Virus genome (UHGV): UHGV-1579991
Strand: one strand, 5' to 3'
DNA length: 64,000 nucleotides
DNA from: a virus
The position numbers and the translations under genes were made by a program. Each line of letters begins with the position of its first letter. Positions within the stretch are counted from its first letter, which is position 1. This document shows, one piece after another, positions 26,801 to 61,592 of the stretch. Under the pieces are notes generated by a model that had not been told where the DNA came from, searched no databases, and saw nothing but the letters and a program-made list of their open reading frames with translations.

Positions 26801-26845
26801 CGCATCCTTGACTTGGTCCTGTAAACAGGGTTGTCAACATGCATT

Positions 26846-26916
26846 GCAATACGACAGGACTCGAACCTGCGACCTCGGATTGGACGTCCGCGCTCTTACC
26901 GCTGAGCTACGTATTC
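26846..26916 (-). tRNA. tRNA, anticodon uncertain (possibly Gly-UCC)
   Basis: Minus strand: acceptor GAATACG/CGTATTG (G1-G72 mismatch), D-arm GCTC-AGCGGTAA-GAGC, T-arm GCAGG-TTCGAGT-CCTGT; anticodon stem irregular (4 bp), loop CGTCCAA. Confidence 0.5.
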
Positions 26917-27009
26917 TTATCAATTGACTGCACTGCAATGCAATCAATCGTGCCAATGATATTTGACACGCATAATTGCAGTTATGCGTAACAATTCAAA
27001 TGTCATTTG

Positions 27010-27082
27010 AGCCAACTGCAGGAATCGAACCTGTAACCTGCTGAGTACAAATCAGCTGCTCTACCAATTGAGCTAAGTTGGC
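27010..27082 (-). tRNA. tRNA-Thr (anticodon UGU)
   Basis: Minus strand: acceptor GCCAACT/AGTTGGC, D-arm GCTC-AATTGGTA-GAGC, anticodon stem GCTGA/TCAGC with loop TTTGTAC, T-loop TTCGATT. Confidence 0.75.
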
Positions 27083-27164
27083 ATAAAGTCGTTGGGCCAT
27101 TGCAACCCAAACCTATCATCTTTGCCTAACCAAAGATGCAAGCGCTCTCTTACACCACGACTTG

Positions 27165-27235
27165 TAGCCGAACTTGGAGTCGAACCAAGCTTTCGAGAAT
27201 GAAAATCTCGCGTCCTAACCGATAGACGAAACGGC
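27165..27235 (-). tRNA. tRNA-Glu (anticodon UUC), non-canonical acceptor stem
   Basis: Minus strand: D-arm GTCT-ATCGGTTA-GGAC, anticodon stem CGAGA/TCTCG loop TTTTCAT, T-arm CTTGG-TTCGACT-CCAAG; acceptor GGCCGTT/TTCGGCT has two U-U mismatches at its base. Confidence 0.5.
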
Positions 27236-27419
27236 CAAGAGCAGTTCAAGTCTGCAGCATTGAACTGCGGAAACAATGCCTGTACGGGCAACCAATTGTG
27301 CAGATACAGCGACATTGCAAAATCACACCGAACCAAGTTTGTGGCTCTTCTGTCTCATAAAAACAAGTAATCATTACACTTGGCACCAATGATTTTGATG
27401 TAAAAATCGGTGTGTTACG

Positions 27420-27504
27420 CGGAGAGTAAGGGATTCGAACCCCTGGTACGTTGCCGTACAGTGGTTTTCAAGACCACCGCCATCGACCGCTCGGCCAACT
27501 CTCC
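27420..27504 (-). tRNA. tRNA-Ser (anticodon UGA), type II
   Basis: Minus strand: acceptor GGAGAGT/ACTCTCC, anticodon stem GTGGT/ACCAC loop CTTGAAA, 16-nt variable arm, T-arm AGGGG-TTCGAAT-CCCTT. Confidence 0.75.
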
Positions 27505-27697
27505 ATAAAACATTGCATAAGCATTCTTATCTCTTGATGAGGCCAAGTAGCTAATTTGGCAAGTTTGTTATATCTATCGTGACTGTTGCAGTTTGTTGTC
27601 ACTCAATACACAAAACTTTCGAACATTCATTGACAACACTGCAATATCGCTTTTTAAGCTCAGCCATCAATGTATTTATGCAATGTATAACAATTCG

Positions 27698-27779
27698 TAG
27701 CCAAACCGGGACTTGAACCCAGACTCCTAATGGAACAACATTTTGAGTGTTGCGTGTCTACCAATTCCACCATTTGGCC
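27698..27779 (-). tRNA. tRNA-Leu (anticodon CAA), type II
   Basis: Minus strand: acceptor GGCCAAA/TTTGGCT, anticodon stem CAACA/TGTTG loop CTCAAAA, 13-nt variable arm, T-arm CTGGG-TTCAAGT-CCCGG. Confidence 0.7.
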
Positions 27780-27876
27780 ATTTGCAAATGCAAGCTGTTT
27801 CACAACTGTTTGCATTTGCATTTGCATTGTTTAACACACTAAAATATGATTCATCTAATCAAAAACCAGAGAATTG

Positions 27877-27949
27877 TCGAGAATGTGCGATTTGAACGCC
27901 AATTATACGTCCCAAACGTATCGTGTTACCGGATTACACTACATTCTCG
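27877..27949 (-). tRNA. tRNA-Pro (anticodon UGG)
   Basis: Minus strand: acceptor CGAGAAT/ATTCTCG, anticodon stem ATACG/CGTAT loop TTTGGGA, T-loop TTCAAAT with a weak 3-bp T-stem. Confidence 0.6.
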
Positions 27950-27956
27950 TTAATTG

Positions 27957-28027
27957 TTGAACTGTCTGGACTCGAACCAGAAATATATCATCCAAAGTGA
28001 TATGTGTTACCATTACACCACAGCTCA
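27957..28027 (-). tRNA. tRNA-Gln (anticodon UUG)
   Basis: Minus strand: acceptor TGAGCTG/CAGTTCA (one G-U), D-arm GTG-TAATGGTAA-CAC, anticodon stem TATCA/TGATA loop CTTTGGA, T-arm TCTGG-TTCGAGT-CCAGA. Confidence 0.7.
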
Positions 28028-39100: not shown

Positions 39101-39339
39101 TTGTAAATGTCAAGTGTGCCATAGACATCTTTCAATGGTCTAATGCTTTCTGATGAGCCGAATGATGGCTTCAAAATTGAATTGCATACACGTTCAACGG
39201 TGCCACGCATAAACTTGACATCACTTCGCTTGTCACTGATAGACATAAATGCATCAATGACAGACTTGATGGTGTCATCTGCGGCTTCATTAACAAAGCC
39301 TACTGGTCGACCGCCAAACTTGTTTGTTTGTGTTGTCAT
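36133..39339 (-). CDS. large hypothetical protein (1068 aa)
   Basis: Long uninterrupted minus-strand ORF; no polymerase, ATPase or other catalytic motif recognised by eye. Confidence 0.55.
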   Translation of the reverse strand: MTTQTNKFGGRPVGFVNEAADDTIKSVIDAFMSISDKRSDVKFMRGTVERVCNSILKPSFGSSESIRPLKDVYGTLDIYNEKYHVMHPKMKSIFMDIMKQAYATADIVCESATAELYAGTWNNASKQERKAMMDALAKAQPNLRYDAAVVDKLFDELSGKDADAVMDAIGMHLDESVESSWNAWPLNVRKQIIAEVAPHMLNQQANIYESPYSNLPEDTALAVRSYIEQHCICESASYNLTSFVHAIAQIEPDNYWRSKHGAVEQCAGKEFADMLLQWSEDKIATQWQVMSPECRKRLCEIFNVMYIDEAISNPAGCSYAQAWWDNDATPAIDRMNVYNRSGAGIASNPDSILLDKMWVDLTDGQRSCITAYLREQHVLDEGLIKFLIGAVTFRWIWKKLANKYRDKVLKLLGLSQPEVTKYGNLDLDDMPSNLRGKVESILGDYAKNVNESADDKELQHVIAYLNTAFVNEAAGDKDSVIQEKSKGVWGIIGKNGEFWPQDYDSYDAALAALRAYHANAHIHEGKIGVNELRKEQIKDIVLPATGKWWDAATKAERKATLDKSGLGSWFAEKSWSEVGALNQLSIAWTAYALGKIAQLDEGKFDKSEAKKHADNIKAIAKKAGAKMEIRKSVSDPHKSYVLYKFSSYNSDAMKEWLSLGPGYGIAAGPMPGGEFHCSIDMSLFNDAGIAVDESLSADGKIAYSTIGIAFPVSSIKAICSWLAYDMTQNQSNACIRGEVLQLVSSIGFDCRSIMQPSALYPCGTPNLDLPLQQAWIPAISIKNDVAVLLTFANDSKQLIVCHDGDWFVIVDAADIVRVLDTVDVASLYIAQDTMPLQMPAMKRQVVPTVGMATIIQICKRFAGRIDDDARGGVFEATQTFEAEMLPSFVKNIVAAPDAAEFLKNTRKVTLAPNTQYAYAIDVNGNRLWLAIDGRWWTTSDPAVVALILANTQDIEAVKAAKKSVEQFTQQQIMQALVDMSAALTNVRYAVAAGRCRDIAVIAKDAAADKDVEVQLTAGVDIPVLAFKDEVSPIVTVRFMYDGKAYEMTPTAELLHACFMFVDNIIALF

Positions 39340-39452: not shown

Positions 39453-42400
39453 TCAATTACATGCTGAATGTCCGCAGTTGGTGCATCGAACACAGCCGTC
39501 AAACTTGACCATGTCACCACCGCATTCAGGACACTTTGCATACATCTTTGAGCCATCTTGAATGTGTAGTTTCAATGCGCGACCAATTGCTTTGCAGAAT
39601 GTGCCAACAGATGCAAAGCTTTTTGCAGTTTGGTCGACAATTTCACCAAGGTCGATGCCATTGCGAAGCATCGTTGAGTACAGTCGAGTAATTGTTTGCT
39701 GCTCATCTGAACCAAGACGTTCTGAGATATTGTCATAGTGTTGCAAGAATGACAAATTATCACCAAGCTTGTAGTGCTTCTTATCAGTCTTTGTGATTGT
39801 CGTTTGTTCAATGCCTTGCAACTTGTCAAATTCGTCTTTGTCAAGTTCAAATGCAAAGATTTCATAGGGTCGACCATCATCACAACCTACAAGAATACAC
39901 CACTTACGCTTATACACTGATACACAATACACTGCAGCAGGCAATACAGGTTTTCGTTTTGAGCGATGACCAGACTGCAAGACATGCGACTTATCCTTAG
40001 ACTGCTTATCATCTTTTACGAGAACACCTGCACGTGAGCCATCTCGATAAATTGTGCAACCCTTGCAGCCAGATTTCCATGCAGTCAGATAAATTTCACG
40101 AACAAGCTCTTTTGTTGCAGAGTTTGGAATATTGACTGTTACAGAAATTGATGAGTCAATGTACTTTTGCAACGCGCCTTGCAGTTTAACCTTGCCAATC
40201 CAGTCAACATCTTCAGTAGTTGCCTTATAGTATGGTGATTGAACAAGCAATTCATCAATGACTGCTTGCGAAGCATTTGACAACCAAGCTTTGATACGAG
40301 ACATTTCTGCTTCTGACCATTCAATGCCAGTATCTTTGACAAGGGTGAATTTGTCATCACCAAGCTGCACTCGTTTGCAAATCCACTGCATCAATGGGTA
40401 GTGAACTACAGCGTATTCAATGAACTTGTCACCAGTAGTCTCATCAATGAAGTTGATGTCTGCTTCATTATCAACTGCAGTAGGCTTTCGACGACGTTTG
40501 TGCAGTGGCATAAAAACAGGTTCAATGCCAGAAGTTGTCTGAGTCATCAAAGCTGTGGTGCCAGTTGGCGCAATTGTTGTTGTGTTGATGTTTCGACGAC
40601 CAAATTGTTGATAAGTTGTGATGTGCTCATCATCAATCAGTTCAGATAACATACGCTGAATGAACTTTGACTGCACATCTGTGTCATAGTCGAATATTGC
40701 AAATGAGCCACGAATCTCTGCCAAGTCAATTGACGCTTCATAAGTCGCCTTTACAAGCCATTGTTGCATAGTGACTGCGAAGTCAATTGACTCTTGTGAA
40801 CCATAGCGCAAGCCAAGCATTGCCATTGCATCGCCAAGTGCAAGAAAGCCCATGCCATATCGACGAGTATTTGTCAATTTGTCATAGACTTTATGCCACA
40901 AGTCAAGCTCAGTTTTCTTAATGTCAAATGATTCTTTGTCTGATTCAACCTTTGCAATGATTCGTTGAACTGCTTCAATTTCAAGCTGCACAAGGTCATC
41001 CATGATGACTGCACAGTCATATGTATCTTTGTAGAATGCTTCAAAGTCAAATGATGCATCAGCAGTCCAAGGATTAAGCACATATGCAGTCAAATTGCGA
41101 TGTGATAAAATGCAGCTTGCATATGCTGCAAGAGGCTGTTCACCGCACTGCCTGTTGTTTACAAATACTTGCATATGTCTGTCATTTGTATCATTGACAG
41201 CGTCAAATGACCCTACAAAAAAGTTGTGATAATCATCTACAGTGCCATTATACACATCTTCTACACCATCAAGTTCAACAGTGTGTACCCTATGATTGTA
41301 GTAATCTGCAAACTGCTTAAACTTTCTGTATGACGCATGAATAGCAGCGTCAACATTGTTAGATTTGCATTCATTTGCAAATTCTTCATAATTTGGTCGT
41401 TTGCCAAGTTTTTGCTTTGCTGCAGTATATACAAGCACTTGTTCTTTAGACCATTTTGCTTGCTGAGCTGCGTGGCCGCATTCGGCAGAACAATATGCAA
41501 CTTCTCTATAAAACCAGTGCGCCCAAAATTCAGAGCCGCAATGTTCGCAAATACGTTTAACATACACTTGTTTGTCAACAAATTTAGTGTCATAGCCCAT
41601 ATTGCGAACTTTAATTGCTGTTGCTATGCATCTGCTATCAATGCCAACTAAATCAGGATATTTAACATTAGCGCGCGTTGCACAATGACTTAAAAATGCA
41701 TCAATAGAGCCAAATGTTTCTACTAATTTATTGTACCTGTAGCCAGACCATGCAACAGTATTATTGCCTGGCGCATAGCGCATATAGTATTCTAATTCTT
41801 TGCGACTAAGGCCTCTTCCAACTTTTGCAGTGCATTGCGTAACATAGTCTACAATTGATTGCACAGTTGTATCAATATCATATCTGCCATTACGTTCACC
41901 AGAAGTAGATGCACTCATTTTAGCAGAATACTGTGCAAAACGTTCTGCATTTGCTTTAATTTTGTATATTGGATTGTTAGTGCCTCTACGTTCAAGTGCA
42001 TGTAATGCATCATGCTCTTTTTTGCTTAGTACTTGTAAGTTATTTGGGTCATTGTTTAATGAATTGCCATCGATATGATGCACTACTGTGTGTGTAGCAT
42101 CAAACTGTTCAGCATGACAGTATTCTGCTATTAAACGATGCTCAAACTTATATACACCATTATTCAACACTGCATAATATGGTGCAGATTTGCTATTTGT
42201 TTGATAGCTAAGCACTTCATCAAATGAACATTGTTGTCTTGCAATAATTGCTAAGCTATCACCATGCTGTAATTGTCGTGCTTCTTTGTATGTGCCATCT
42301 GTTAACTTAAACTTGTGATTACCTGTGCAACGAATAACATCACCAGAATCAAGTGTAACTTTGTATATTTGCACATTTGAGCCTGTTTTGCGTGGATGCC

Positions 42401-43439
42401 GCATTTTGCGTACAACTACATTATTGTTGTCATCATAGCAATACACATTAACATCATCGCCAATATCTGCAAGTTCACGTATTGTCATTGTTTGTCTGCC
42501 ATCAGCAAGCATAACTTTAGTGCTGCCAACAATGCATGGATTTGTTGAGCGCTCTTCATACATTTTACCGTATGCTTTCGAGTTCGACTCTTCCATAATG
42601 CGGTCCCAAAAGAACACGCCGGGTTCTGCAGATGCCCATACATTGTCAACAATTTTGTCAAATAATGCTTTTGCATCTGATGTCTTATGCAGCTCTTGGC
42701 CATCAGAGCCACGCCAAATATGTTCAAACTGCTGTTCTGCAAGCACTGCACGCATAAATGCATCAGTAAGCTTGATGGAAATGTTTGCACCTGTGATTTT
42801 TGTCAAGTCTTTTTTTGCGTCAATGAACTTATCTGCATCAGGATGCTCAATTGACAATGACAACATCAATGCGCCACGCCTGCCATTTTGTGCAACTTCT
42901 TTTGTCGATGTTGAAAAGCGTTCCATAAATGACACGACACCAGACGTCGTAATAGCACTGTTATGTACTTCTACGCCTTCTGGGCGAATATGCGACAAAT
43001 CATGGCCAACACCACCACGACGTTTCATCAACTGAACTTGCTCTTCATCTGTTTTGAAGATGCCGCCATATGAATCTGCATCATTGCCTATTACATAGCA
43101 ATTTGACATTGATGTGTAACCGCCAAGACCGATACCAGCCATTGGAGAACCACCAAGTACAAATCGCTTAAATGGCTCAAGCAAATATGCAAGTCGCTCT
43201 TTTGACAATACACGTTTGCCTGTCTGTTCTTCAAATTGTGATTCTATACGGTCAAATTCATTGACCCAGCGCTCATGCATATCAGACAATGAGTGTTCAT
43301 ACAAATTGTCTTTGTCATGATGCAAGTATTTTGACATGCATATGTCAGCAGCCATTGAGTCGCCCGTAAATTCATGCGTCAGTGTAGTGTGCACTTCAGC
43401 ATATTCAGGCGACCCAATTTGAATGGGACGTTTTGTCAT
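39453..43439 (-). CDS. nrdJ: ribonucleotide reductase, class II (NrdJ)-like, intein-containing precursor
   Basis: Track ORF 39453..43499; likely start at ATG 43439 (MTKRPIQIG). Exteins reconstitute the RNR active-site motif NP-CGEQPL...AYASC; C-terminal Cys-rich zinc-ribbon-like tail. Class assignment is tentative. Confidence 0.7.
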   Translation of the reverse strand: MTKRPIQIGSPEYAEVHTTLTHEFTGDSMAADICMSKYLHHDKDNLYEHSLSDMHERWVNEFDRIESQFEEQTGKRVLSKERLAYLLEPFKRFVLGGSPMAGIGLGGYTSMSNCYVIGNDADSYGGIFKTDEEQVQLMKRRGGVGHDLSHIRPEGVEVHNSAITTSGVVSFMERFSTSTKEVAQNGRRGALMLSLSIEHPDADKFIDAKKDLTKITGANISIKLTDAFMRAVLAEQQFEHIWRGSDGQELHKTSDAKALFDKIVDNVWASAEPGVFFWDRIMEESNSKAYGKMYEERSTNPCIVGSTKVMLADGRQTMTIRELADIGDDVNVYCYDDNNNVVVRKMRHPRKTGSNVQIYKVTLDSGDVIRCTGNHKFKLTDGTYKEARQLQHGDSLAIIARQQCSFDEVLSYQTNSKSAPYYAVLNNGVYKFEHRLIAEYCHAEQFDATHTVVHHIDGNSLNNDPNNLQVLSKKEHDALHALERRGTNNPIYKIKANAERFAQYSAKMSASTSGERNGRYDIDTTVQSIVDYVTQCTAKVGRGLSRKELEYYMRYAPGNNTVAWSGYRYNKLVETFGSIDAFLSHCATRANVKYPDLVGIDSRCIATAIKVRNMGYDTKFVDKQVYVKRICEHCGSEFWAHWFYREVAYCSAECGHAAQQAKWSKEQVLVYTAAKQKLGKRPNYEEFANECKSNNVDAAIHASYRKFKQFADYYNHRVHTVELDGVEDVYNGTVDDYHNFFVGSFDAVNDTNDRHMQVFVNNRQCGEQPLAAYASCILSHRNLTAYVLNPWTADASFDFEAFYKDTYDCAVIMDDLVQLEIEAVQRIIAKVESDKESFDIKKTELDLWHKVYDKLTNTRRYGMGFLALGDAMAMLGLRYGSQESIDFAVTMQQWLVKATYEASIDLAEIRGSFAIFDYDTDVQSKFIQRMLSELIDDEHITTYQQFGRRNINTTTIAPTGTTALMTQTTSGIEPVFMPLHKRRRKPTAVDNEADINFIDETTGDKFIEYAVVHYPLMQWICKRVQLGDDKFTLVKDTGIEWSEAEMSRIKAWLSNASQAVIDELLVQSPYYKATTEDVDWIGKVKLQGALQKYIDSSISVTVNIPNSATKELVREIYLTAWKSGCKGCTIYRDGSRAGVLVKDDKQSKDKSHVLQSGHRSKRKPVLPAAVYCVSVYKRKWCILVGCDDGRPYEIFAFELDKDEFDKLQGIEQTTITKTDKKHYKLGDNLSFLQHYDNISERLGSDEQQTITRLYSTMLRNGIDLGEIVDQTAKSFASVGTFCKAIGRALKLHIQDGSKMYAKCPECGGDMVKFDGCVRCTNCGHSACN
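41148..42536 (-). mobile_element. intein (Hint domain plus HNH homing-endonuclease domain) inside the RNR gene
   Basis: In-frame 463-aa insertion from Cys at 42536 (CIVGSTKVMLADG) to ...VFVNNRQ at 41148, followed by the +1 Cys of CGEQPL. Contains HNH motif HHIDGNSLNNDPNNLQVLSKKEHDALH and intein block-F-like VYNGTVDDYHNFFVG. Confidence 0.75.
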
Positions 43440-43504
43440 TGTAACAGTGCATTTAAGTGTTTTAACAGTTTTATGTATAAATTGTACAACAATGGGCAAA
43501 ATTT

Positions 43505-46094: not shown

Positions 46095-46700
46095 TTAGCC
46101 TGCAAACTCATTGATTTTTAGGTCATTTGTCGTAACTGCAAAGCAATCAATGTGCAGCCATGTGACGTCTTTTTCTATACGACAACGATGCGGCAATTCA
46201 TCTGCATGTTCTTTAATGAGCTTTCGCATTTCTGCAGCAGTCATATCTGCAGACTGACAATCAATTGCTGCACCATTACAATGAGCACTCAAATAAAGCT
46301 TGTTTGCAAGTGTCTTGTCTTTTGGGATTTGACAGATATTGCATCGTAAGCCCCGTTGACTCATTGTGCCACCTTTAGCCCAATTATTGACACACAACGG
46401 AACTTTCAGCACAAACTTGCGTAATGCAAGCAGCAAGTCAAGCAGTTCTCTGTCAAGAAACTGCCAAGAATTATCGCCAAACTTGTCATAGCAATGTTTG
46501 CATACAAGTTCTTTTATGCTGAAGTACTGCTTAAGCTCTGCAATAACAGAGTCTCTTGAAGCACTTGCAATATCTGCAATGTTAGTTATGCTGTTGTTGC
46601 TGTTCATGTTGTCTGTCAAGTTCTTTGCATTTGCACTCATTTCGTTCACCCATGACTTTTGTAATGCCTGCAGTTGCAAACATGCCTGCGACTGCACCAA
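46095..46700 (-). CDS. putative endolysin, peptidase M15-like (zinc D-Ala-D-Ala carboxypeptidase / L-Ala-D-Glu peptidase fold)
   Basis: 201 aa; SxHxxGxAxD motif (LSAHCNGAAIDC) and downstream His (WLHID); true start may be an internal Met. Overlaps the holin-like ORF. Confidence 0.6.
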   Translation of the reverse strand: MVQSQACLQLQALQKSWVNEMSANAKNLTDNMNSNNSITNIADIASASRDSVIAELKQYFSIKELVCKHCYDKFGDNSWQFLDRELLDLLLALRKFVLKVPLCVNNWAKGGTMSQRGLRCNICQIPKDKTLANKLYLSAHCNGAAIDCQSADMTAAEMRKLIKEHADELPHRCRIEKDVTWLHIDCFAVTTNDLKINEFAG

Positions 46701-46890
46701 TTATGCCTGCAACTGCGCCAAGCTGTTCAGTTGTTTTACCAGTTGCTACGACTTCCCATATGATAGCAAAACAAACAACGAGCAATATAAAGATGCCTAT
46801 AAAAGTCACAGCTACAACAAAAAATGATTTGACTGACACACCTGTGTCATTCGTCACTAAGTTGCGCATTGTAAATTTGTTGTTATTCAT
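46582..46890 (-). CDS. holin-like small membrane protein
   Basis: 102 aa; two hydrophobic helices (FFVVAVTFIGIFILLVVCFAIIW, AVAGIIGAVAGMFATAGI) and a charged C-terminus; 3' end overlaps the endolysin start. Confidence 0.45.
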   Translation of the reverse strand: MNNNKFTMRNLVTNDTGVSVKSFFVVAVTFIGIFILLVVCFAIIWEVVATGKTTEQLGAVAGIIGAVAGMFATAGITKVMGERNECKCKELDRQHEQQQQHN

Positions 46891-51578: not shown

Positions 51579-52565
51579 TTATACTACAGCAGACAATTGT
51601 TGCAATGTTGACTGCATAACGTCATCAGTTACAAATAATTCGTTTTCAGTGAACACATAAAATTTTAAGCCATGTTGTTTTGCATATTGCACTGCTGCAG
51701 TAGATTTTTTACGTACTGCATCACAAAATGCATATGCACATGGCTTAATTTCTATTAGCAATCCATATGTAGGCAAATAGAAATCTACAATGTATTTATG
51801 ATGCCCATTGTATGGCACTGCAACAGTTTCATATTCATATTGAATGCCAAGACGTTCTAATGTCAATACAAAATGAGTTTCATAACTACTGCGTGTATGC
51901 AATTGCGTTGGCATTGCAATAGAATGACATTTTACACACTGCTGAACAAGTACTAATGCGCGTTTGCCCTTACCACAGTTTTGCATTTTGCCATTTTGCA
52001 TTGCTCGTGCAACACCTGCAGCAACGTGCATAGCAAATGATGGGTCTTCTTTATATTTTCGTCGTAACCCTGCAGATACACGAGACTTAAAGTCTGGGTC
52101 TTCTGCATAGCGTCTGTTCAAACCAGCAGTTACTCGTTGGCTAAATGTCGGGTCATTCACTACAGCAACCATTGCTTTTCGCGTGCCAATTGACACATTT
52201 TTACATCGAGTTTCATCTCGCCATACTTTAGACATAGATGCTGTCCAGCGTTTAACATATTCAGGGTCATCAAACGCATGTTTTGCGCGACAGCATTTAC
52301 AAACATTATTAAAGTAGCCATATCTAATGCCTATGTATGCTATAGCAGCCCCACAATATTTGCAATGTTTTGCTGCGTCATCATACAATAGATATTTGTC
52401 ATAGTAGTCTTGTTCATGCATATTAACAGATTGTAATGCTCTGCGTATTGTGCATGATGTACACCATTTGTTAAGCTCTGGTACATAATACTCATAACGT
52501 TGCTGCCCCTTTGGTGTTATTCGTGCAAGTCTTTTATATTCCGGATGATATGTAGGATTTTTCAT
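51579..52565 (-). CDS. homing-endonuclease-like paralog (divergent N-terminus)
   Basis: 328 aa; C-terminal nuclease-like domain (YIVDFYLPTYGLLIEIKP) as in the other paralogs; N-terminal Cys-rich region with repeated DPxFKxRVxAGLxRxY motifs. Confidence 0.45.
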   Translation of the reverse strand: MKNPTYHPEYKRLARITPKGQQRYEYYVPELNKWCTSCTIRRALQSVNMHEQDYYDKYLLYDDAAKHCKYCGAAIAYIGIRYGYFNNVCKCCRAKHAFDDPEYVKRWTASMSKVWRDETRCKNVSIGTRKAMVAVVNDPTFSQRVTAGLNRRYAEDPDFKSRVSAGLRRKYKEDPSFAMHVAAGVARAMQNGKMQNCGKGKRALVLVQQCVKCHSIAMPTQLHTRSSYETHFVLTLERLGIQYEYETVAVPYNGHHKYIVDFYLPTYGLLIEIKPCAYAFCDAVRKKSTAAVQYAKQHGLKFYVFTENELFVTDDVMQSTLQQLSAVV

Positions 52566-52659: not shown

Positions 52660-53382
52660 TTAGTTATCATGCACAGCAGCTATATAACGGCCTTGCGAAT
52701 CCAAATGAATCGCAGTTTGCATTGTAATTTCTGGCTGCGCTTTGTTGTGTTGTTGCTCTGCATCATATTCACGTCGCAACCCACCATTCGGATGACATAG
52801 GTAAAACCTATCAAAATCTGTACCCAACTGTTCAGCGACAGACAGCATAATATTGTCGCCTACAAGCTGAGATGCTAGCAGAGAATTTGTTGGGATTCGT
52901 GGATTGCGTGAGTCCTCGTCAATTGCTGGCAATGATACAAGCAAGTCTGCCCAAGCATTCATATCAGTGACCTTGCCACCGGCAAAGTTGATGCCAATGA
53001 TTTGACAATTCGGTGCAAGCAATTCACGATGTTCACGAAGATATGTCATTGCAGTTGCAAGTTCAGATGTGTTGCCAGTTTTGCTGAATGCTACAATAAC
53101 ATCGTTGTTTCGAATCATGCCAAAGTCACCATGCATTGCATGCACTGCATCAAAGAATGATGCGTTCAATGACAAGCAATAACATGTTGCAGCAAGTTTT
53201 TCACAGCAATGCACATTTTTGCCGATGCCAGTGAACAACACTTTGCCATCAGACTTCAATGCATTTGCAATGATATCTGCTGCAATGCCAAGAACATCAT
53301 ATTGCGCATCTGAAATGTTGTTGTGCCATGCTACAAGCGATTCAACTGATGCAGCAATGCCTTTGTGTACAAGTGTTTTCAT
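52660..53382 (-). CDS. SIS-domain sugar-phosphate isomerase (KpsF/GutQ arabinose-5-phosphate isomerase-like)
   Basis: 240 aa; SIS signatures VLFTGIGKN, HAMHGDFGMI and FSKTGNTSEL. Confidence 0.65.
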   Translation of the reverse strand: MKTLVHKGIAASVESLVAWHNNISDAQYDVLGIAADIIANALKSDGKVLFTGIGKNVHCCEKLAATCYCLSLNASFFDAVHAMHGDFGMIRNNDVIVAFSKTGNTSELATAMTYLREHRELLAPNCQIIGINFAGGKVTDMNAWADLLVSLPAIDEDSRNPRIPTNSLLASQLVGDNIMLSVAEQLGTDFDRFYLCHPNGGLRREYDAEQQHNKAQPEITMQTAIHLDSQGRYIAAVHDN

Positions 53383-54463: not shown

Positions 54464-54521
54464 TTGAAATGCATTTGTATATGATAATTGTACCACGCAT
54501 GCATCAACTTTGCACACAAAA

Positions 54522-54549
54522 CAAGACCAGCTCAATTGAGCTGGTCTTG
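54522..54549. terminator. 28-bp perfect palindrome; putative terminator
   Basis: caagaccagctcaattgagctggtcttg; directly downstream (transcript sense) of 54568..55140; CAATTG centre as at 50197-50222. Confidence 0.5.
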
Positions 54550-54567
54550 CGGTCATATGTAGACTTC

Positions 54568-55140
54568 TTAAAATTTGGATAGACTCGTAGTATCAAGCGA
54601 TGCAATTGAATCAATGCGCAAAGAATCTGCTATAGGTGCGCAATCATCAATTGGGTGACTTGCAGGCTTAACTTTGAGCATATACATTCTGCAATTGCCA
54701 ATATCTATAAGGGAACCAGAACGTGTCATATAATCACAGCCCAAAATGCCAACGACTTCATGACCAAGTGCTTTGCTAAGCTGAACTAAAATAGGTGAAA
54801 TATCATCAATAAACATATCCAACTGTACAGAGCCATTTGCGATAGTAATATCTGCGTCTATTGCATGAGATACTTGAAGAGCCCCTGTAACATATGATAA
54901 TCGCTTAACTGAACGCTCTTTGCCAACCATGTCATGAGTAGCAACAAATGTGCTATCAATCAATGACAATGACGCGCCAGTATCAAGCAAAAGCCATGCA
55001 TCGACACCATTGACATTTGCATGCACAAATGGCAGGCTCTTCAAAACAATTGGTGACTGTGATTGCTGCAATGCTTCATTGCACATTGTCAGCGTCATAA
55101 TCGCAAGTAGCGATATGAGAAACAATTTGAATGCTTTCAT
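54568..55140 (-). CDS. secreted retropepsin-like aspartic protease
   Basis: 190 aa; N-terminal signal-peptide-like hydrophobic segment (LFLISLLAIMTLTM), catalytic D-T-G-A-S (LLLDTGASLSLIDS) and downstream GILGCDYM motif. Confidence 0.5.
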   Translation of the reverse strand: MKAFKLFLISLLAIMTLTMCNEALQQSQSPIVLKSLPFVHANVNGVDAWLLLDTGASLSLIDSTFVATHDMVGKERSVKRLSYVTGALQVSHAIDADITIANGSVQLDMFIDDISPILVQLSKALGHEVVGILGCDYMTRSGSLIDIGNCRMYMLKVKPASHPIDDCAPIADSLRIDSIASLDTTSLSKF

Positions 55141-55154
55141 AAGGCTACTCTGCT

Positions 55155-57104
55155 TTAGTCATTTGCTTTAGTTGCTTGCATCAGTTCAGCAAAGCTTACA
55201 GTGTAAGCGTCTTCGCCAACGGTCACGTATGCAGCATTGACATTTGAGTCATTGCCTGTGTATGTAACCAAGGTGCCTGCAGGAATTTCCACACCGTCAA
55301 TGGTTCGCATCGAATTGACAAGCTTGTATGTCTTGTTATCTTCGAAGTTCTCATTGACATATGCAGCAGCAATCATTGTTGAACGCTTACGAGATTCATT
55401 GATGAAACTTGCGCCAACAAGTTCTGACAACTTCTTCTTTGTTACAGCAGAGCATTTGTCATATGCAATGTCAATTGCGAGGTCTACATCACCAAGTTCC
55501 TTTGCAATGAGTTCATCAATCTGAGACAGCTTCTTGTCATCTTTGACAGCGACAAAATTCATTGCAAACTTGCGAGCGTTGTCTGACAATGATTCATCAA
55601 TGTTCCACTGTTTCATCAATGTCTGCTTCAGTACCTTGTCAAGTTCCGACCAGTCCTTATCTGCAAGAGTAGTTGCATCAAAGTCTTCATTGCTGAACTG
55701 CTTCAGCACTTTGACTTTGTCATCATGTGACAATGCAGCCCACTTGTTTGCAGCCTCTTCAGCAGATTCAAGCAAAGGCTTGATTGCATCTTTGAGTTCT
55801 TGCGGCCAAGTTTCAGGCGCTTTGAGCAGCATCTCAGATGAGTTGTACTCAAGCATGTCAGTCATGATTGCAAGCTTAACATTGTTAGCTTTCTCCTCGG
55901 GTGACAGAGCTTTGAACTTTTCAGCCCAGTCTTCAGATTCAGTTACAATTGACACTGGTTTTGCAAAACCAGCAACAAAGACAAGCTTATACATGATATT
56001 CGTCATGAATGAGCAAACTGCATCAATGTCTGACTGTGTTGCTGCAGATTGAGCATCACGAATGTTGAGCAATGCCTGACGAAGAGACATAATGCCTACA
56101 ACAGGGTCAGACCATGTCAACACAACAGAGCTGTCAATTGTGATACCCTTGTCGAATCGCATATTTTCTGCAATACGGTCAGCAAGTTCAGGCAGTTCAG
56201 TGTAGTACTGCTCAAGTGCTGCATGTGTAGCAGGAATCGAAACTTTTGCAGCATCAAATGGGTTGTTGATGTGCATAACATGTGCAGTTTGAATTGACTG
56301 CATCAGCATCGACACTACTGCAGATTCTATTGCAACATCATCTGCAGCAGCTTCATCAAGATTTGCAAGTTTTAGCAATGTCTTTTTGTCTGCATCTGAC
56401 AATCGCAGCCAAATGTATTCCCATTGACTGTTTGCATCATAGCCACGGTCAGTAGCAAACTTGGTGAGTTCTGCAGATTTCTTTGCTGCGTCATCGTCAT
56501 CAAGCCAATCCAAGAATGCTTTCAGTTTGTCGTCAAATGCTTCATTAACAAATGACGCCATTGCATTTTGCAGCAAATATTGATGGTCTCGTACTGGCGA
56601 CTCAACAATTTCAAAGCCTTCAAGAGACTTTGGCGAGTCAGTTGCTGAACCAGCTTCAAGACACTTCTTTGATGCATTGTCAATGACAAACCACATCTTT
56701 TGTGCTTTGAGTGCAATGTAAGTCTTGTCTTTTGATTGCTGAACAGTCATGTTGTCAAGAGCCAATGCACTGATTGGCAAATTCTTGACTGCTGACTTGT
56801 CAAGTGCTTCATTGACTGCTACATTGTCATCACTCATTAACTGAGTATTTGCAGCAAATGTTGCAGAATCAATGTTAAGCTCTTTGCCATCAGGCATAGA
56901 GAACTTAACTGCATCTGCAACATCAAGCACTTGTACCATGGTACCTGCTTCGACTTTGTCATCACCAACAGCGAACTCAGTTACAACCTGATATGCCTTG
57001 TTAGCTTCAACAGTTTCAACAGACTCCATAATGAACTTTGCTGTACTGCAAGAGATTTTGTGCTTTTTCATGTTCATGTATGAATTTGAGTGTTTGTTGT
57101 TCAT
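55155..57104 (-). CDS. hypothetical acidic protein (649 aa)
   Basis: Long minus-strand ORF rich in Asp/Glu/Ala; no catalytic motif recognised; possibly structural or scaffold. Confidence 0.5.
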   Translation of the reverse strand: MNNKHSNSYMNMKKHKISCSTAKFIMESVETVEANKAYQVVTEFAVGDDKVEAGTMVQVLDVADAVKFSMPDGKELNIDSATFAANTQLMSDDNVAVNEALDKSAVKNLPISALALDNMTVQQSKDKTYIALKAQKMWFVIDNASKKCLEAGSATDSPKSLEGFEIVESPVRDHQYLLQNAMASFVNEAFDDKLKAFLDWLDDDDAAKKSAELTKFATDRGYDANSQWEYIWLRLSDADKKTLLKLANLDEAAADDVAIESAVVSMLMQSIQTAHVMHINNPFDAAKVSIPATHAALEQYYTELPELADRIAENMRFDKGITIDSSVVLTWSDPVVGIMSLRQALLNIRDAQSAATQSDIDAVCSFMTNIMYKLVFVAGFAKPVSIVTESEDWAEKFKALSPEEKANNVKLAIMTDMLEYNSSEMLLKAPETWPQELKDAIKPLLESAEEAANKWAALSHDDKVKVLKQFSNEDFDATTLADKDWSELDKVLKQTLMKQWNIDESLSDNARKFAMNFVAVKDDKKLSQIDELIAKELGDVDLAIDIAYDKCSAVTKKKLSELVGASFINESRKRSTMIAAAYVNENFEDNKTYKLVNSMRTIDGVEIPAGTLVTYTGNDSNVNAAYVTVGEDAYTVSFAELMQATKAND

Positions 57105-57354
57105 ATGATATGATATATATCAAGTGCAGCAATTGAACAGATTGCAAAAACAATGCTCAGACTTTACAGTCTGAGCATTGAACGACTAAATTGTACATCT
57201 TCCACAATGATATAGAATCATTGTTAATATTGTATTGATATTGTACAACATGCATTGCATATTTGCAATGATACAACATGCAAAATGCACTTGCACTTTG
57301 ATGCAAAGTACTGCGTACACAACATGCATTGCATATTTGCATTTTGACGCAATG

Positions 57355-58425
57355 TCATTGTTGTTTATGCCAGCCATATGATGCCTGACCAGCATCATAC
57401 ACTTCTACAAAACCATGGTCGTACATAAAATCTTCATTACGAGTGCCCTTGCCACCATTAGTGCCAAGAATACGGTCTGCACCATGCATAAGTAGCATGT
57501 TATTTGTGACATGTTGCTTTGTCAGCATATTGAACCAGTGTTTGCTATATGACAAACCAAGACCATCAAAGCCCAGCTTTGTGTACACACCACCGTCAAA
57601 CTTGCTTAAATCACAATATGATAACACAGATTCAGGGTCATATGTCTTGATAAAGTGCTTAAAGATTCGTTCAGCACCACCAACAACTTTGGTTGCTGCA
57701 CAAAGACGTAGCAATTCATATTGATAGCGCTTATTGTATCGTGGACGACCAAATGTCATAAGTTGATGAATGACATAACCACCAAGCAACTCAAGTGGAT
57801 GACCTTCAATCAACGCAAGATTGATAAAATTGCCTGAGCACTTGCCTTGCAAATGATGTTCAATCAAAAATTGATTTGCAGTATACTTGTCAATTTCAAC
57901 AACTTTAAGCTTGCGAGCATATACAATCTTTGATTTGTCTACGATTTGATGCTTGATGTGATTGATAACTTTCTTGGCGTCATCCCAATCCCACACATGA
58001 ATACAATGAAAGCCTGCAGCTTTTGCAATGTCTGTTTTCTTTGCATGAACATCACAAGGCAAATGTGCATCTTTTGCATCATGCATAAACAAGTGCTCAA
58101 ATGAATGCGTACTGTTATGCGAAAATGCAGGATTGATGTTAATGACAATATTGTCATGTCGAAAATCGAAGACTTCATCACCAATGACAAAGTTGCGCTC
58201 AAAATCTATACCGACATGTTTGAGCAACACTTGATGCCACACGTCTTTATAGGCTGATTCAAGCTTGCTTAGCTCATCACAGTTTGCAATGTTTTTGTAA
58301 CGTTGAATAGCAGCATCAAAGTCAAGATTGACTTCAGCGTAGTCTGCATTTTTATCATAGTGAAATTTTGAGCTCATGCGTATAATTTTGTGTATATAAT
58401 TATTGTACAACATGCAAATGCACAT
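57355..58425 (-). CDS. homing-endonuclease-like paralog (nuclease-like domain N-terminal)
   Basis: 356 aa; N-terminal IVININPAFSHN...GFHCIHVWDWDD nuclease-like domain and C-terminal FVEVYDAGQ tail homologous to the family VYDCGH motif. Confidence 0.5.
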   Translation of the reverse strand: MCICMLYNNYIHKIIRMSSKFHYDKNADYAEVNLDFDAAIQRYKNIANCDELSKLESAYKDVWHQVLLKHVGIDFERNFVIGDEVFDFRHDNIVININPAFSHNSTHSFEHLFMHDAKDAHLPCDVHAKKTDIAKAAGFHCIHVWDWDDAKKVINHIKHQIVDKSKIVYARKLKVVEIDKYTANQFLIEHHLQGKCSGNFINLALIEGHPLELLGGYVIHQLMTFGRPRYNKRYQYELLRLCAATKVVGGAERIFKHFIKTYDPESVLSYCDLSKFDGGVYTKLGFDGLGLSYSKHWFNMLTKQHVTNNMLLMHGADRILGTNGGKGTRNEDFMYDHGFVEVYDAGQASYGWHKQQ

Positions 58426-58468: not shown

Positions 58469-59530
58469 TTATTTTGTATTGCTACGCGTCATTGTTAAAT
58501 GACCGCAATCATACACATCAACTTCTGTTTTGCCAAGCATACATGTATGACAATTTATTTTGAAATCTGCTGCAGTGTAATCAGGATAGTTTAGCGGAGA
58601 TTCTTTTGACAAATCAATTTCAATTGTGTCAGTAGTTTTAAGTTGTTCAGTGCCTGCAATGATATCTGCAATAAGATTGATAACTTCTTCTTGTGAATCC
58701 CAATCAAACACAGTTATGCAACGATAGCCTGCATCAAGTGCAAGTTTTGTTTTGTTGTAATGGTATTGAGCACCAATAACATTGTTGTCTTTTGCTCGAC
58801 CAGTTAAATATGCAAAACTAACAGTGCAGTTGTGCGTAACTGTTGGACAAATTTCTATAAGTAACTTTGCAGGCTCATACTGCAAATCATATGTTTGATT
58901 ATTGATGTTAAACTCGTACTGTGTATCAATTGCCAACTGTCGTAATAACGCATCATGCCACATCATATTACATTTAGAAATTGTTTTGGATGACAATCTG
59001 CATTGCGGCAATTGACATGGCCAATCTACGCCGTACATTTGTTGTGTTGTTTGACGCATTTTGTTAACATCACCAAAATGATTGCCATATCGATGCTCTT
59101 TGGTTTTAAGCGACTGCTCAATATTGACATTGCCTACACAACCATAACGTTCAAGTTTTGTTGCAGCAGTTTTGCTAACATCACCATGCCCATTGCCAAA
59201 TTTGGCGACTTTAGTTGCAAGTATTTTATGACTTGGGCCAAATGCATTGCCATACAATTCTTGTTTAGTCGCAAGCATTTTGTCGATATTACAACCAGCG
59301 CCATAAGTGTTATGCATAGTTTGCATACGTTGTCGAATAAATTTTGGCACAGATAAAGGACTTTCTACACCATATTTGCGTAAGCAACTGATTTTGCATG
59401 CGTACTTTTGCTTGATGACAGAATGTGCATTTCGACGTCCTATGTAAGTGTTTTCTGATGTAGCAGCAAGCTCTGCATCTCTAAGAACTTCAAGTGCAGC
59501 AATTCGTGCTTCAATTTCTTCAGATGTCAT
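58469..59530 (-). CDS. homing-endonuclease-like paralog
   Basis: 353 aa; coiled-coil N-terminus (EIEARIAALEVLRD), YG-x-x-x-G-D repeats, LIEICPTVTHN...GYRCITVFDWD nuclease-like domain, VYDCGH tail. Confidence 0.55.
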   Translation of the reverse strand: MTSEEIEARIAALEVLRDAELAATSENTYIGRRNAHSVIKQKYACKISCLRKYGVESPLSVPKFIRQRMQTMHNTYGAGCNIDKMLATKQELYGNAFGPSHKILATKVAKFGNGHGDVSKTAATKLERYGCVGNVNIEQSLKTKEHRYGNHFGDVNKMRQTTQQMYGVDWPCQLPQCRLSSKTISKCNMMWHDALLRQLAIDTQYEFNINNQTYDLQYEPAKLLIEICPTVTHNCTVSFAYLTGRAKDNNVIGAQYHYNKTKLALDAGYRCITVFDWDSQEEVINLIADIIAGTEQLKTTDTIEIDLSKESPLNYPDYTAADFKINCHTCMLGKTEVDVYDCGHLTMTRSNTK

Positions 59531-59610: not shown

Positions 59611-59647
59611 AAAAAAGAACCGCTTGCAATCTAATTGCAAGCGGTTC
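59611..59647 (-). terminator. intrinsic terminator downstream of the putative capsid gene
   Basis: aaaaaa-gaaccgcttgcaat-cta-attgcaagcggttc: 14-bp perfect stem, 3-nt loop, followed on the minus strand by a T6 run. Confidence 0.65.
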
Positions 59648-59876: not shown

Positions 59877-61592
59877 TCAAATCCAGCCGTAGTCGCTGTG
59901 GATAGCGAAGGTGAGGTAAGCCAACTCGGGATACATACCCGTCTCCGCGAGAGCGTAATCCGACTCAATCAGCAACTTAGGCGCTGCTGTACCTTCGGCT
60001 GTTAATTCCACACTTGATGCAAGGTCATATGGCATGAATACGCATCCCTGGTTGACATTCTCTACGTCAACGCCGTCAGCAGTTTTGTTCGTACGAAGAA
60101 CGAGAACAGTGTTATCGTTCAGCGGCTGCTTAGGATTGCAATAGATTTTAATGCCAGCAAGGTCACCTGCATAATACAGGTTCTTGTTGTCCTGTACCAG
60201 CGTATTGTCAAGAGCTGCAACAAAGTTCTTCTGAGCCTTAATTGCAACCAAGGCAATCGTATTGACCACGGCAGCATCACCGGCACCGAAACGCGACAGG
60301 TTGCCAATGATTGCCGAAGCAGCCAGGATACGAGTTGCGATACGAGCCTGACGGGTAATCTGGTTCTCAGCCGAGCTGTTCGATTCAGCGTTCGGAACCA
60401 TACCGAATTCAGCCGTACGGTCTACACCCATCTTGTCGACAAATGCAGGAGCCTGGAATTCTGAGAATGCCTTGGCGGTTGAACCAGCGTAGCCAATGTA
60501 CAAGTTCAGGTTGTAGCCCTGAGCAGCCAACAGCTGAGCATGTGTCGTAACACCAAGTGCACGCATGCGCTTCAGACCATTGTCGTTAATTGACTGCGTG
60601 ATTTCATTCTGCATTGCATTCTTGATGATTGCAACTGCATCCAAACCGCGAGCACGGAGGTCCTTAACCTGTCGACGAGTCAGAGCACCCCAAGTCTGGT
60701 ACGTCTTAACTTCGATAGCCTTTGAGAAGGTGCGGAGCTCCAGCATGTTCGGGTTGCCAGCCTCAGCCTCAGAACGAGACATTGGGTTGCCGTCAATGTC
60801 ATCCATTGCAGCGAAGCCGTGGATGTGTTCGTCACCAGCCGAAACCAGGTCGAACATAACCTCAGTCATGCCAGTCAGCATGTCAGTTACAGCACCTGCA
60901 GCGTCAACCGAGTAGATTTTCGATGCAGCCATTGCAACATCAGCCAACGACTTGTCAGGAGCAACTGTCATTGCGCCACCTGCGCCTACAGTGTACACGC
61001 CCTCATTGCGAACTACGAGGTAGCCTGCAACACGCGATACCTGTACAAACGTTACCTTGGCAGCAAGCTCACCGGCAGCTGAACCGCCGATGTACAGAAC
61101 TTGACCCTTCTTGAGGCCATGAACCATTGTCTGCGAAGCAACATTGTACAACTCCTTCCACTTGATGAGGAAGTAACGAGGACCCTTGGCTGCATTCAAC
61201 TTGCCACCGCCATATACGTAGTCTACATAGTCCAGCTGAACCAGCGGGCTGTAAACAGGAATGGTCGGGAGCAGGTCGAACAGAATCGTGTTGGCTGCGA
61301 TGTTCATGTTCAGAGCCAGAACATTGGCAGCTACATCTATTGAACCACGCTTACGCGACGGGTCATGGAACTGTGCTTGCGTACCTGGGTCAGCAGGGAA
61401 AGCGACCGGACCTACGCCATTGAGATTCTGCGAATACGTCGACTCAAACGACTCGTTCATATACTGAACGTTCTGAGCGATTGATGCGAGCAGATACTTC
61501 TTAGCGGGCGAGAGCTTGGAGTCAAACGACTCATCAAGAACAGGACCCCACTTTTTCAGCAATGCATCAATCTGTGTACGTTTTGCGTTCAT
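59877..61592 (-). CDS. putative major capsid protein
   Basis: 571 aa ORF in a locally GC-richer stretch with distinct codon usage (highly expressed gene signature, judged by eye), followed by a strong intrinsic terminator; no catalytic motifs. Functional call is inference, not a recognised motif. Confidence 0.4.
   Translation of the reverse strand: MNAKRTQIDALLKKWGPVLDESFDSKLSPAKKYLLASIAQNVQYMNESFESTYSQNLNGVGPVAFPADPGTQAQFHDPSRKRGSIDVAANVLALNMNIAANTILFDLLPTIPVYSPLVQLDYVDYVYGGGKLNAAKGPRYFLIKWKELYNVASQTMVHGLKKGQVLYIGGSAAGELAAKVTFVQVSRVAGYLVVRNEGVYTVGAGGAMTVAPDKSLADVAMAASKIYSVDAAGAVTDMLTGMTEVMFDLVSAGDEHIHGFAAMDDIDGNPMSRSEAEAGNPNMLELRTFSKAIEVKTYQTWGALTRRQVKDLRARGLDAVAIIKNAMQNEITQSINDNGLKRMRALGVTTHAQLLAAQGYNLNLYIGYAGSTAKAFSEFQAPAFVDKMGVDRTAEFGMVPNAESNSSAENQITRQARIATRILAASAIIGNLSRFGAGDAAVVNTIALVAIKAQKNFVAALDNTLVQDNKNLYYAGDLAGIKIYCNPKQPLNDNTVLVLRTNKTADGVDVENVNQGCVFMPYDLASSVELTAEGTAAPKLLIESDYALAETGMYPELAYLTFAIHSDYGWI

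Follow-up and report, generated by a model that had tools for sequence, protein, structure and literature searches.

The minus strand of the virus genome UHGV-1579991 encodes, at positions 54568 to 55140 of the stretch analysed here (the window, 64,000 nucleotides in length), an aspartic protease of the retropepsin type (clan AA). Membership of the Pfam family PF13650 (Asp_protease_2), matches between sequence profiles, conserved motifs and the predicted fold all agree on this assignment. Judging from its N-terminus, the protein is very likely exported, and its lipidation at a cysteine in position 20 (Cys20) is probable. The reading favoured below, which is considered reasonably likely, is that of an exported, probably lipid-anchored, homodimeric enzyme that would cut proteins of the host envelope during infection.

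On the plus strand, the same interval holds only open reading frames (ORFs) of 44 and 73 codons. The translation of the protease gene starts with MKAFK-LFLISLLAIMTLTM-C20-NEALQQ. Its catalytic motif, D53-T-G-A-S57, follows hydrophobic residues (L50-L-L), and its second signature, G131-I-L-G-C-D136, is preceded by V129-V and directly followed by a helix predicted at residues 135-141. In the original prediction, a signal-peptide-like N-terminus, a DTGAS motif and a downstream GILGCD motif had been taken as the marks of a retroviral-type protease in a phage genome. Both motifs are indeed present in the ORF, the N-terminus has the charged region, hydrophobic core and cysteine of what can now be described as a probable lipoprotein signal, and the family profiles and the predicted structure bear out the clan assignment, so that the DTGAS match is not fortuitous. 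The strand of the ORF is the sole detail that had not been given.

The match to PF13650 reaches 29.0 bits (E 1.8e-6), above the gathering cut-off of 24.3, and covers positions 1-89 of the 90 positions of the profile. The scores with RVP, RVP_2 and gag-asp_proteas fall slightly under the Pfam cut-offs of these families, and PF13650 is also the precomputed assignment of the closest relatives. A word-indexed search with the single protein gave four close relatives, and a profile search among 1.84 billion representative proteins gave 433 relatives at E values up to 1e-3. Most of these are 130-190 amino acids (aa) long, and a subset of about 300-350 aa shows two profile matches per protein; two DTG motifs, 130-160 residues apart, are found in 30 of the 47 family members of 260-400 aa. 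Within an alignment of 101 family sequences, D53, G55 and G131 are invariant, and conservation reaches at least 90% at T54, I132, G134 and D146; G131, G134 and D136 are invariant in a second alignment of 21 sequences (A2). Compared with the sequences of the PDB, the family profile matched the proteases of feline immunodeficiency virus (FIV; E 8.5e-10) and of human immunodeficiency virus 1 (HIV-1), human ASPRV1, DDI1 and the rickettsial protease APRc, also called ApRick (E 6e-7). In these profile alignments, the DTGA of the family stands opposite the DTGA of the FIV protease (FLLDTGADIT), and the GIGG flap of the family stands opposite the retroviral flap. A phmmer search of the same sequences with the window protein alone returned noise only.

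No PHROG family was found for the protease, and no Pfam, PHROG or NCBIfam match links it to the prohead protease families (S77 gp21-type, S78, U9, U35); weak matches to phrog_21241, named 'protease', were obtained from 4 of 21 relatives. Among the PADLOC models, PDC-M08B gave a weak match (E 1.5e-5) that spans positions 26-124 of its 127 positions, and neither of the genes flanking the protease gene matches any PADLOC model. The PDC-M08B match is probably due to nothing more than the common retropepsin fold; it also indicates that retropepsin-like proteins occur in predicted bacterial anti-phage defence loci, here a candidate system. A protein of 4931 aa (P0007; E 1e-24, 22 stretches) was rejected as a relative, its repeats matching the disordered C-terminal tail of the window protein and not the protease domain. 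These repeats are of the cadherin/VCBS-like, adhesin type and match residues 134-181 ('DAPIAVDDTATA...SLVANDTD'), a low-complexity artefact that calls for caution in automated family assignment. A conserved disulfide bond between C135 and C150 was also rejected, as C150 is not conserved beyond the closest relatives.

The structure predicted with AlphaFold2 (AF2) from the 101-sequence alignment has a mean predicted local distance difference test score (pLDDT) of 80, with 104 residues at 90 or above. Means over blocks of ten residues lie between 84 and 97 across residues 31-150, except for residues 81-90 (65), which form the low-confidence turn of a flap-like β-hairpin predicted at residues 74-100. 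A helix is modelled at residues 2-24, and pLDDT falls below 50 over residues 158-190. The top Foldseek matches of this model in the PDB are all of the retropepsin type, with a probability of 1.00 to the RVP domain of DDI1, the protease of equine infectious anaemia virus (EIAV), HIV-1 protease and APRc (5c9f). For EIAV protease, the root-mean-square deviation is 2.2 Å and the TM-target value 0.77; the HIV-1 protease entries have TM-target values of 0.70-0.79.

Strong purifying selection acts on the gene. Compared with two near-identical metagenomic copies (L001 and L002), 31 synonymous and 2 non-synonymous differences are counted; the corresponding numbers are 12 and 1 against L003, and 23 and 3 against L004. 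The ratio of non-synonymous to synonymous substitution rates is 0.02-0.03 against these four copies, and about 0.1 against relatives of 73% and 64% identity. Thus, the reading frame is real and the gene is a working one. The L004 copy has a 5-residue deletion inside the C-terminal tail, which fits the tail being disordered, and this tail is not present in orthologues of 29-33% identity. Between three sublineages of this phage group, the major capsid proteins (MCPs) are 74-76% identical and the 649-aa proteins encoded just upstream of the protease are 30-39% identical; the proteases are only 29-33% identical, with all motifs kept. Judged from these comparisons, the invariance of D53, T54, G55 and GILGxD despite such divergence would be expected only if catalysis matters.

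The N-terminus consists of a positively charged n-region (MKAFK), a hydrophobic core of 14 residues (lipoprotein signals have 7-22) for which the 11-residue Kyte-Doolittle mean reaches up to 2.65, and Cys20, which is invariant across the nine-member clade of the window protein. Lipoboxes at the end of the hydrophobic region were judged by a strict PROSITE-style pattern, [LVI][ASTVI][GAS]-Cys. Clade members that pass this pattern are P0004 (LYAC), P0008 (IIAC) and P0009 (VVAC). Moreover, the syntenic orthologue found in L029 and L030 carries SIAC, which looks canonical by eye, and the lipoboxes LYSC, SVSC and LISC are found in retropepsin genes of unrelated phage contigs. Across 208 single-domain family members, the N-terminus is hydrophobic in 74% and contains a strict lipobox in 19%. 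The sequence C-N-E-A at Cys20 was also considered as a cleavage site of an S77-type protease, which would make the N-terminus a capsid-targeting sequence. This was rejected, since such a segment is far too hydrophobic and the motif is not conserved (P0003 and P0004 have CHD and CHE in its place, other relatives CKQ and CNK).

Genes of this family occur in several groups of phages. The clade of the window protein itself is absent from the 50,697 deposited phage records searched, where tblastn with the protease and with its 649-aa neighbour, and megablast with 5 kb around the gene, gave no match. Scans of IMG/VR with three clade members (P0006, P0008 and P0009) found nothing, and a metagenome scan recovered the contexts of their genes. 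Other lipoprotein-type versions are found in IMG/VR contigs of 143 kb (beside a ribonucleotide reductase gene) and 675 kb (near topoisomerase IB), and in another contig beside a helicase gene. A version without signal adjoins DNA polymerase A in a gut crAss-like contig. Using this protein (P0243, a family member found via the A2 profile), tblastn matched 51 phage records, mostly of crAss-like Bacteroides phages; among the matches listed, 10 of 12 records name the protein 'aspartyl protease' and 2 of 12 'hypothetical protein'. In PhiCrAssBcn2, the copy starts with a transmembrane helix followed by NRRK. The best structural matches in BFVD are also phage proteins (E 5e-11 to 9e-8), led by a Myoviridae entry (E 5e-11) and including a 'Retropepsin-like protein [CrAss-like virus]' and an 'Aspartyl protease [uncultured phage cr111_1]'. 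Since retropepsins are already annotated in crAss-like phages and in these BFVD entries, such an enzyme in a phage is less unusual than the original prediction implied. A homologue of 33% identity (P0016) lies at the edge of a Bacteroidota prophage, beside lysozyme-holin genes and in the orientation opposite to the late genes. Five further phage contexts have the family gene among genes for replication or nucleotide metabolism. In the literature on phage and jumbo-phage retropepsins, PF13650 in phages and the crAss aspartyl protease, no functional study was found.

Among 185,579 representative prokaryotic genomes, the LGCD clade of the window protein gave two weak matches (26-30% identity, on contigs of metagenome-assembled genomes) and no close relative. 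Named cellular homologues belong to Bacteroidota (Pontibacter, Ekhidna), the best identity found to any cellular member being 33%. In two cellular loci (L013:5177-7565 and L014:5204-7475, from Pontibacter sp. G13 and a 4-Mb genome), a cassette encodes a histidine kinase, an OmpR-type response regulator, a retropepsin-like protein and a protein of 326-352 aa with faint matches to galactose-binding domains. This cassette may be an envelope-related regulon and so give a hint at the cellular function of the family.

The features of the protease gene and of its surroundings are listed in Table 1.

Table 1. Positions of the retropepsin-like gene, its parts and other features of the phage genome discussed in the text (window coordinates unless a contig is named).
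Feature	Position	Strand	Basis or remark
Retropepsin-like protease pre-protein, complete ORF (ATG start, 190 aa + stop)	54568..55140	-	ORF list, translation, PF13650, ratio of substitution rates
Predicted signal peptide, codons 1-20 (MKAFK n-region, LFLISLLAIMTLTM h-region, ending L-T-M-C20)	55081..55140	-	Hydropathy, AF2 helix, clade conservation
Retropepsin fold, single-lobe β-barrel, codons 27-157	54670..55062	-	AF2 and Foldseek
D-T-G-A-S catalytic motif, codons 53-57 (Asp53, catalytic residue)	54970..54984	-	Family alignment, FIV protease alignment
G-I-L-G-C-D second signature, codons 131-136 (equivalent of retroviral GRD/GRN)	54733..54750	-	Family alignments
Disordered C-terminal tail, codons 158-190	54571..54669	-	pLDDT <50; specific to closest relatives
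Intrinsic terminator (13-bp stem, AATT loop, TTTTGTGTG tail)	54521..54550	-	Terminator scan; 18 nt after protease stop
Gene of 649-aa protein	55155..57104	-	Stop 14 nt before protease start; protease lies downstream
Terminator-like hairpin (13-bp stem, then TTTTTG), 5' limit of two-gene unit	57151..57180	-	Terminator scan
Two homing-endonuclease-like genes	58469..59530; 57355..58425	-	Between MCP and 649-aa genes
Terminator after MCP gene	59617..59647	-	Hairpin and T-run, terminator scan
gp23-type MCP	59877..61592	-	Pfam Gp23
S77-type protease-scaffold fusion, 1399 aa	L020:2006-6205, about 4-8 kb past window position 64000		DNA fetched beyond window end
Lysis pair: 102-aa holin-like protein (two hydrophobic helices), then endolysin (phrog_894)	46095..46890	-	
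Seven tRNA genes (Gly, Thr, Glu, Ser, Leu, Pro, Gln)	26412..28027	-	ARAGORN

All genes around the protease gene are on the minus strand. The RNA of the terminator that follows it (54550-54521) has a folding energy of -32.3 kcal/mol (z = -5.4), and a divergent relative (L027) has a terminator of unrelated sequence at the matching place after the protease gene, and another after the MCP gene. The spacing of the protease and 649-aa genes and the terminators on both sides suggest that the two genes are probably co-transcribed. Three sublineages (L005 and L027; L029 and L030; the window group) have the same gene order, in which the MCP gene is followed by a variable set of homing endonucleases, then by the 649-aa homologue and the protease. 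A functional partnership of the two proteins was not adopted on the ground of their adjacency, as the whole 15-kb region is syntenic among relatives.

The 649-aa protein has sub-threshold matches to DUF5856 and phrog_858. It contains four sites of the form hydrophobic-N-E-[ASGN], against 0.25 expected (P ~1e-4). The motif occurs three times in a 1068-aa protein (36133..39339, minus strand). Its shorter form, hydrophobic-N-E, is present nine times in the fusion of S77 protease and scaffold, once near the N-terminus of the MCP (YMNE-S, residues 44-48) and twice in the 513-aa product of the next gene after the lysis pair. These sites are probably cleavage sites of the prohead protease of this phage group and would mark head components. 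The sites in the 649-aa protein suggest that this is probably a head protein and that the unit of the protease is probably expressed late.

The steps of the favoured reading can be described as follows. The protease gene would be transcribed last in the short unit delimited by the two terminators. Its pre-protein would be exported by Sec via the N-terminal signal, and Cys20 would probably be acylated, tethering the protease to a membrane with the catalytic domain facing the periplasm or the cell surface. As expected from its family, the lobe of about 130 residues would pair with a second copy, the two Asp53 residues making one active site as in HIV protease. Dimerisation is required by the single-lobe fold, and the long family members with two DTG motifs, which would have both lobes in one chain, lend it indirect support. 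The dimer would then cleave one or more host envelope proteins. The activity of APRc, the closest characterised analogue, is taken as the working model of an envelope retropepsin. The preferred role would be a remodelling of the envelope that blocks further adsorption or entry of phages, by receptor destruction or superinfection exclusion. A role of this type is favoured because the family has the behaviour of a mobile accessory gene in phages that are not related to one another, its copies being often located in early or replication modules and in one case at the edge of a prophage, and because strict conservation of the catalytic residues goes with fast divergence elsewhere in the protein. 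Genes for early host takeover and for exclusion are usually located among those for replication and nucleotide metabolism. Morons, which are accessory additions to phage genomes, typically have the orientation opposite to that of the late genes, and the prophage homologue P0016 has this arrangement, which argues for an accessory envelope role. The weak similarity to PDC-M08B was counted on the same side.

Several observations weigh against this reading. The lipobox of the window protein, L-T-M-C20, fails the strict pattern, methionine at position -1 being non-canonical, and cleavage by signal peptidase I or an uncleaved anchor is possible instead of lipidation. The flap is degenerate, with Y-V-T-G86-A where many relatives in the 21-sequence alignment have GIGG. 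Homologues in other phages differ in topology, some being soluble and others having a transmembrane anchor that probably leaves the domain on the cytoplasmic side, so that no one target compartment is conserved in the family. A transcription unit shared with a probable head protein points to late expression, which fits a role at the lysis stage at least equally well. Finally, none of the analyses points to a substrate, so that the target stands where the original prediction had left it. That prediction had offered host envelope proteins or virion maturation as possible targets: the former are still plausible, and the latter loses ground to the S77 enzyme of the phage itself and to the export-type N-terminus.

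The main alternative to exclusion, judged unlikely but the one to be taken most seriously, is an accessory role in lysis. A late, lipid-anchored protease could cut the ties between outer membrane and cell wall, or proteins that stabilise the outer membrane, and so do a spanin-like job or help in the release of progeny. The lipoprotein-like N-terminus and the position of the gene as the last of a unit with a probable head protein, implying late timing, are in line with this proposal, as is the fact that no recognisable spanin-like gene adjoins the genes of the holin-like protein and the endolysin. However, the protease gene is 7.7 kb from that pair and not co-oriented with it in one cassette, and the window protein has no o-spanin features. 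The prophage homologue P0016 can be read both ways, since its gene is directly beside the lysozyme-holin cassette but is transcribed opposite to the lysis genes; the five other phage contexts, with replication or nucleotide-metabolism genes and not lysis genes, and the homologues without export signal also speak against lysis. It might otherwise be supposed that proteolysis is irrelevant, the fold serving in an envelope lipoprotein as a binding module that masks a receptor or channel, much as the Llp lipoprotein of phage T5 blocks FhuA. The small size and export of the protein, its degenerate flap and the immunoglobulin-binding role reported for APRc are compatible with such a masking role, which is nevertheless quite improbable given that D53, T54, G55 and GILGxD are invariant in orthologues of only 29-33% identity and that the motifs are conserved across the 101 family members.

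That the gene is a passenger, a cellular retropepsin lipoprotein picked up from Bacteroidota and playing no part in infection, is suggested by the homologues in Bacteroidota chromosomes and their conserved cassette of two-component, protease and galactose-binding-like genes. Strong purifying selection, a fixed position in three sublineages, the lack of a close relative of the LGCD clade in the representative prokaryotic genomes and the independent recurrence of the family in several unrelated phage groups make this highly improbable. The processing of head or other virion proteins is barely credible, even if the gene is only 4.7 kb downstream of the MCP gene and probably co-transcribed with that of a protein bearing prohead-protease-type cleavage motifs. 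An exported enzyme has no access to the proheads, which are assembled in the cytoplasm, and the phage has a gp21-type S77 protease of its own, which is encoded as a fusion with a scaffold-like region. The N-terminus of this 1399-aa fusion matches Peptidase_S77 below threshold (E 8.6e-5), and the protein shares 33% identity across 250 residues (E 1e-32) with a protein of 1207 aa annotated in Chryseobacterium phage MA9V-2 as 'prohead core protein serine protease'. The gp21 protease of phage T4 cleaves with glutamate at P1, and the hydrophobic-N-E motifs match this specificity, not the preferences of retropepsins. Moreover, the window protein matches no PHROG head family, and tblastn detected no homologue in the cultured relatives MA9V, PAU and PTm1. 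The earlier view that this is not a standard prohead protease is thus borne out, and the preferred reading stays that of an enzyme directed at the host envelope.

Other features of the surroundings can be noted. In the S77 fusion, a T4 gp21-like domain is joined to an acidic, scaffold-like stretch of great length; the fusion is followed by an ORF of 973 aa with a weak match to the tail-sheath C-terminal domain. A 15-mer, TGCATGTTGTACAAT, occurs in three exact copies, all on the minus strand (57240-57254, 58402-58416 and 59548-59562); two of them belong to the starts of the two homing-endonuclease-like genes, where they lie either a short way upstream or within the annotated 5' end, and the third comes after the second of these genes. 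The number of endonuclease genes at this place varies, from none in L005 to one in L027 and two in L029 and L030, and the 15-mer looks like a promoter or a mobility signal that would travel with the endonuclease cassettes. Another endonuclease-like gene (328 aa; 51579..52565, minus strand), has weak matches to TnsA, endonuclease I and Holliday-junction resolvase; the near-identical L001 and L002 have a gene of about 113 aa in its place, a further mobile insertion polymorphism. A SIS-domain protein (52660..53382, minus strand), encoded 1.2 kb downstream of the protease gene, matches the PHROG family 'arabinose 5-phosphate isomerase', of the pathway to precursors of 3-deoxy-D-manno-octulosonic acid and lipopolysaccharide. 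Such an auxiliary metabolic gene fits a host that is Gram-negative.

The gp23-type MCP and near-identical viral contigs of 175 kb in IMG/VR place the gene in a phage genome, as had been assumed. The MCP is 37% identical to that of MA9V-2, 36% to that of Sphingomonas phage PAU and 34% to those of Tenacibaculum phages, all of them jumbo phages of more than 210 kb; the phage of the window is assigned to this PAU/MA9V-like jumbo group. Divergent relatives are found in contigs of human gut metagenomes. Within the 20 nucleotides before each start, the Shine-Dalgarno-type motifs AGGA, GGAG or GAGG are found for 1 of 45 minus-strand genes, and the leaders are A-rich. Shine-Dalgarno-poor, A-rich leaders are typical of Bacteroidota and of phages that infect them. 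Together with the named cellular homologues and with the hosts known for most relatives of the MCP, they suggest that the host is probably a member of the Bacteroidota. The window also encodes a ribonucleotide reductase, a polynucleotide kinase and a deoxynucleoside monophosphate kinase. The gene of the large reductase subunit (39453..43499, minus strand; 1348 aa) has HNH-endonuclease matches at residues ~438-744, which probably correspond to an intein or a homing endonuclease; the ribonucleotide reductase of an unrelated phage contig (L007) also looks interrupted. In the tRNA region, a starred ARAGORN call ('tmRNA*', 26412-26854) overlaps an ORF (25901..26437) and may be an artefact.

Phages of Bacteroidota are dominant in the virome of the human gut, and few of their accessory genes have an assigned role; classical spanins and exclusion systems are also poorly known in Bacteroidota. 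An envelope-directed retropepsin is under strong purifying selection here and the enzyme is envelope-directed in several other lineages, which suggests that cleavage of an envelope protein of the host is of benefit to the phage. It can be proposed, though only tentatively, that exported or tethered retropepsins are a widespread class of effectors of Bacteroidota phages (jumbo phages like PAU and MA9V, crAss-like phages, contigs of megaphage size and prophages) that remove surface or periplasmic proteins of the host. If so, their targets might be, for example, the receptor of the phage itself, TonB-dependent transporters or components of the type IX secretion system, and the outcome would be the exclusion of competing phages, the prevention of progeny loss on cell debris or a breach of the outer membrane. 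This would then be the first enzymatic, protease-based mechanism of superinfection exclusion or receptor destruction described for tailed phages. The substrate could reveal the phage receptor or a mechanism of exclusion or lysis specific to Bacteroidota, and would give the large bacterial PF13650 family its first biological function.

Precedents for proteins exported to the Gram-negative envelope by phages or prophages include Llp of T5, Cor of lambdoid phages, the o-spanin Rz1 and OmpT, an omptin encoded by the cryptic prophage DLP12. The usual function of proteins of this sort lies in superinfection exclusion, lysis or lysogenic conversion. OmpT is a β-barrel omptin (family A26), and the other three have no enzyme activity; none of the four is related to the window protein in sequence or fold. 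In particular, o-spanins are very small, proline-rich lipoproteins encoded in or beside the i-spanin gene, whereas the window protein has 190 aa and an enzyme fold and its gene is distant from the lysis pair. With the proteases of HIV-1, FIV and EIAV and with the DDI1 and ASPRV1 domains, it shares the fold, the DTGA motif, a flap-like hairpin and a GRD-like motif. It differs from them in being exported, in having no linkage to a polyprotein, reverse transcriptase or ubiquitin-like domain, and in a flap without GIGG; an extra helix at residues 115-125 of the model may be a further difference from retroviral and eukaryotic retropepsins.

APRc (RC1339 of Rickettsia conorii) resembles the window protein as a retropepsin of the bacterial envelope with a single lobe and a DTG site. 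It differs in sequence (about 15% identity in the structural alignment), is described as membrane-embedded and is encoded by a chromosomal gene of an intracellular pathogen. The relatedness is at the level of the clan only, APRc scoring below the retroviral proteases against the family profile. To go by the title of a paper on it (PMC8649778), APRc reportedly also has a non-proteolytic, immunoglobulin-binding role. In vitro, surface autotransporters are cut by this outer-membrane retropepsin, which also dimerises and processes itself (PMC4140852); its substrate in vivo is disputed (PMC10414592).

Closer likenesses are found within PF13650. The crAss-like proteases (PhiCrAssBcn, Kehishuvirus, cr128_1, cr111_1) and the Myoviridae and Siphoviridae entries of BFVD named 'aspartyl protease' or 'retropepsin-like protein' are of the same fold and family. 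Like the window protein, the crAss-like enzymes belong to phages of Bacteroidota, are membrane-associated and are functionally uncharacterised. They differ by a transmembrane helix that looks uncleaved and is followed by NRRK, suggesting a domain that faces the cytoplasm, whereas the window protein is of the signal or lipoprotein type; moreover, their genes lie in the replication module and the window gene downstream of head genes, and no direct BLAST similarity links them. The bacterial members of PF13650, named 'retropepsin-like aspartic protease' by NCBI, share with the window protein the DTGAS motif, the hydrophobic-hydrophobic-G-x-D signature, a single lobe of about 130 residues and, in most cases, an N-terminal signal or anchor. 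Compared with these cellular members, the window protein is phage-encoded, has the clade-specific LGCD and a disordered tail of 33 residues, and is found without the two-component cassette. The window gene is thus a divergent, lipoprotein-type addition to the known PF13650 family, of a class that databases already label 'aspartyl protease', and not a new system.

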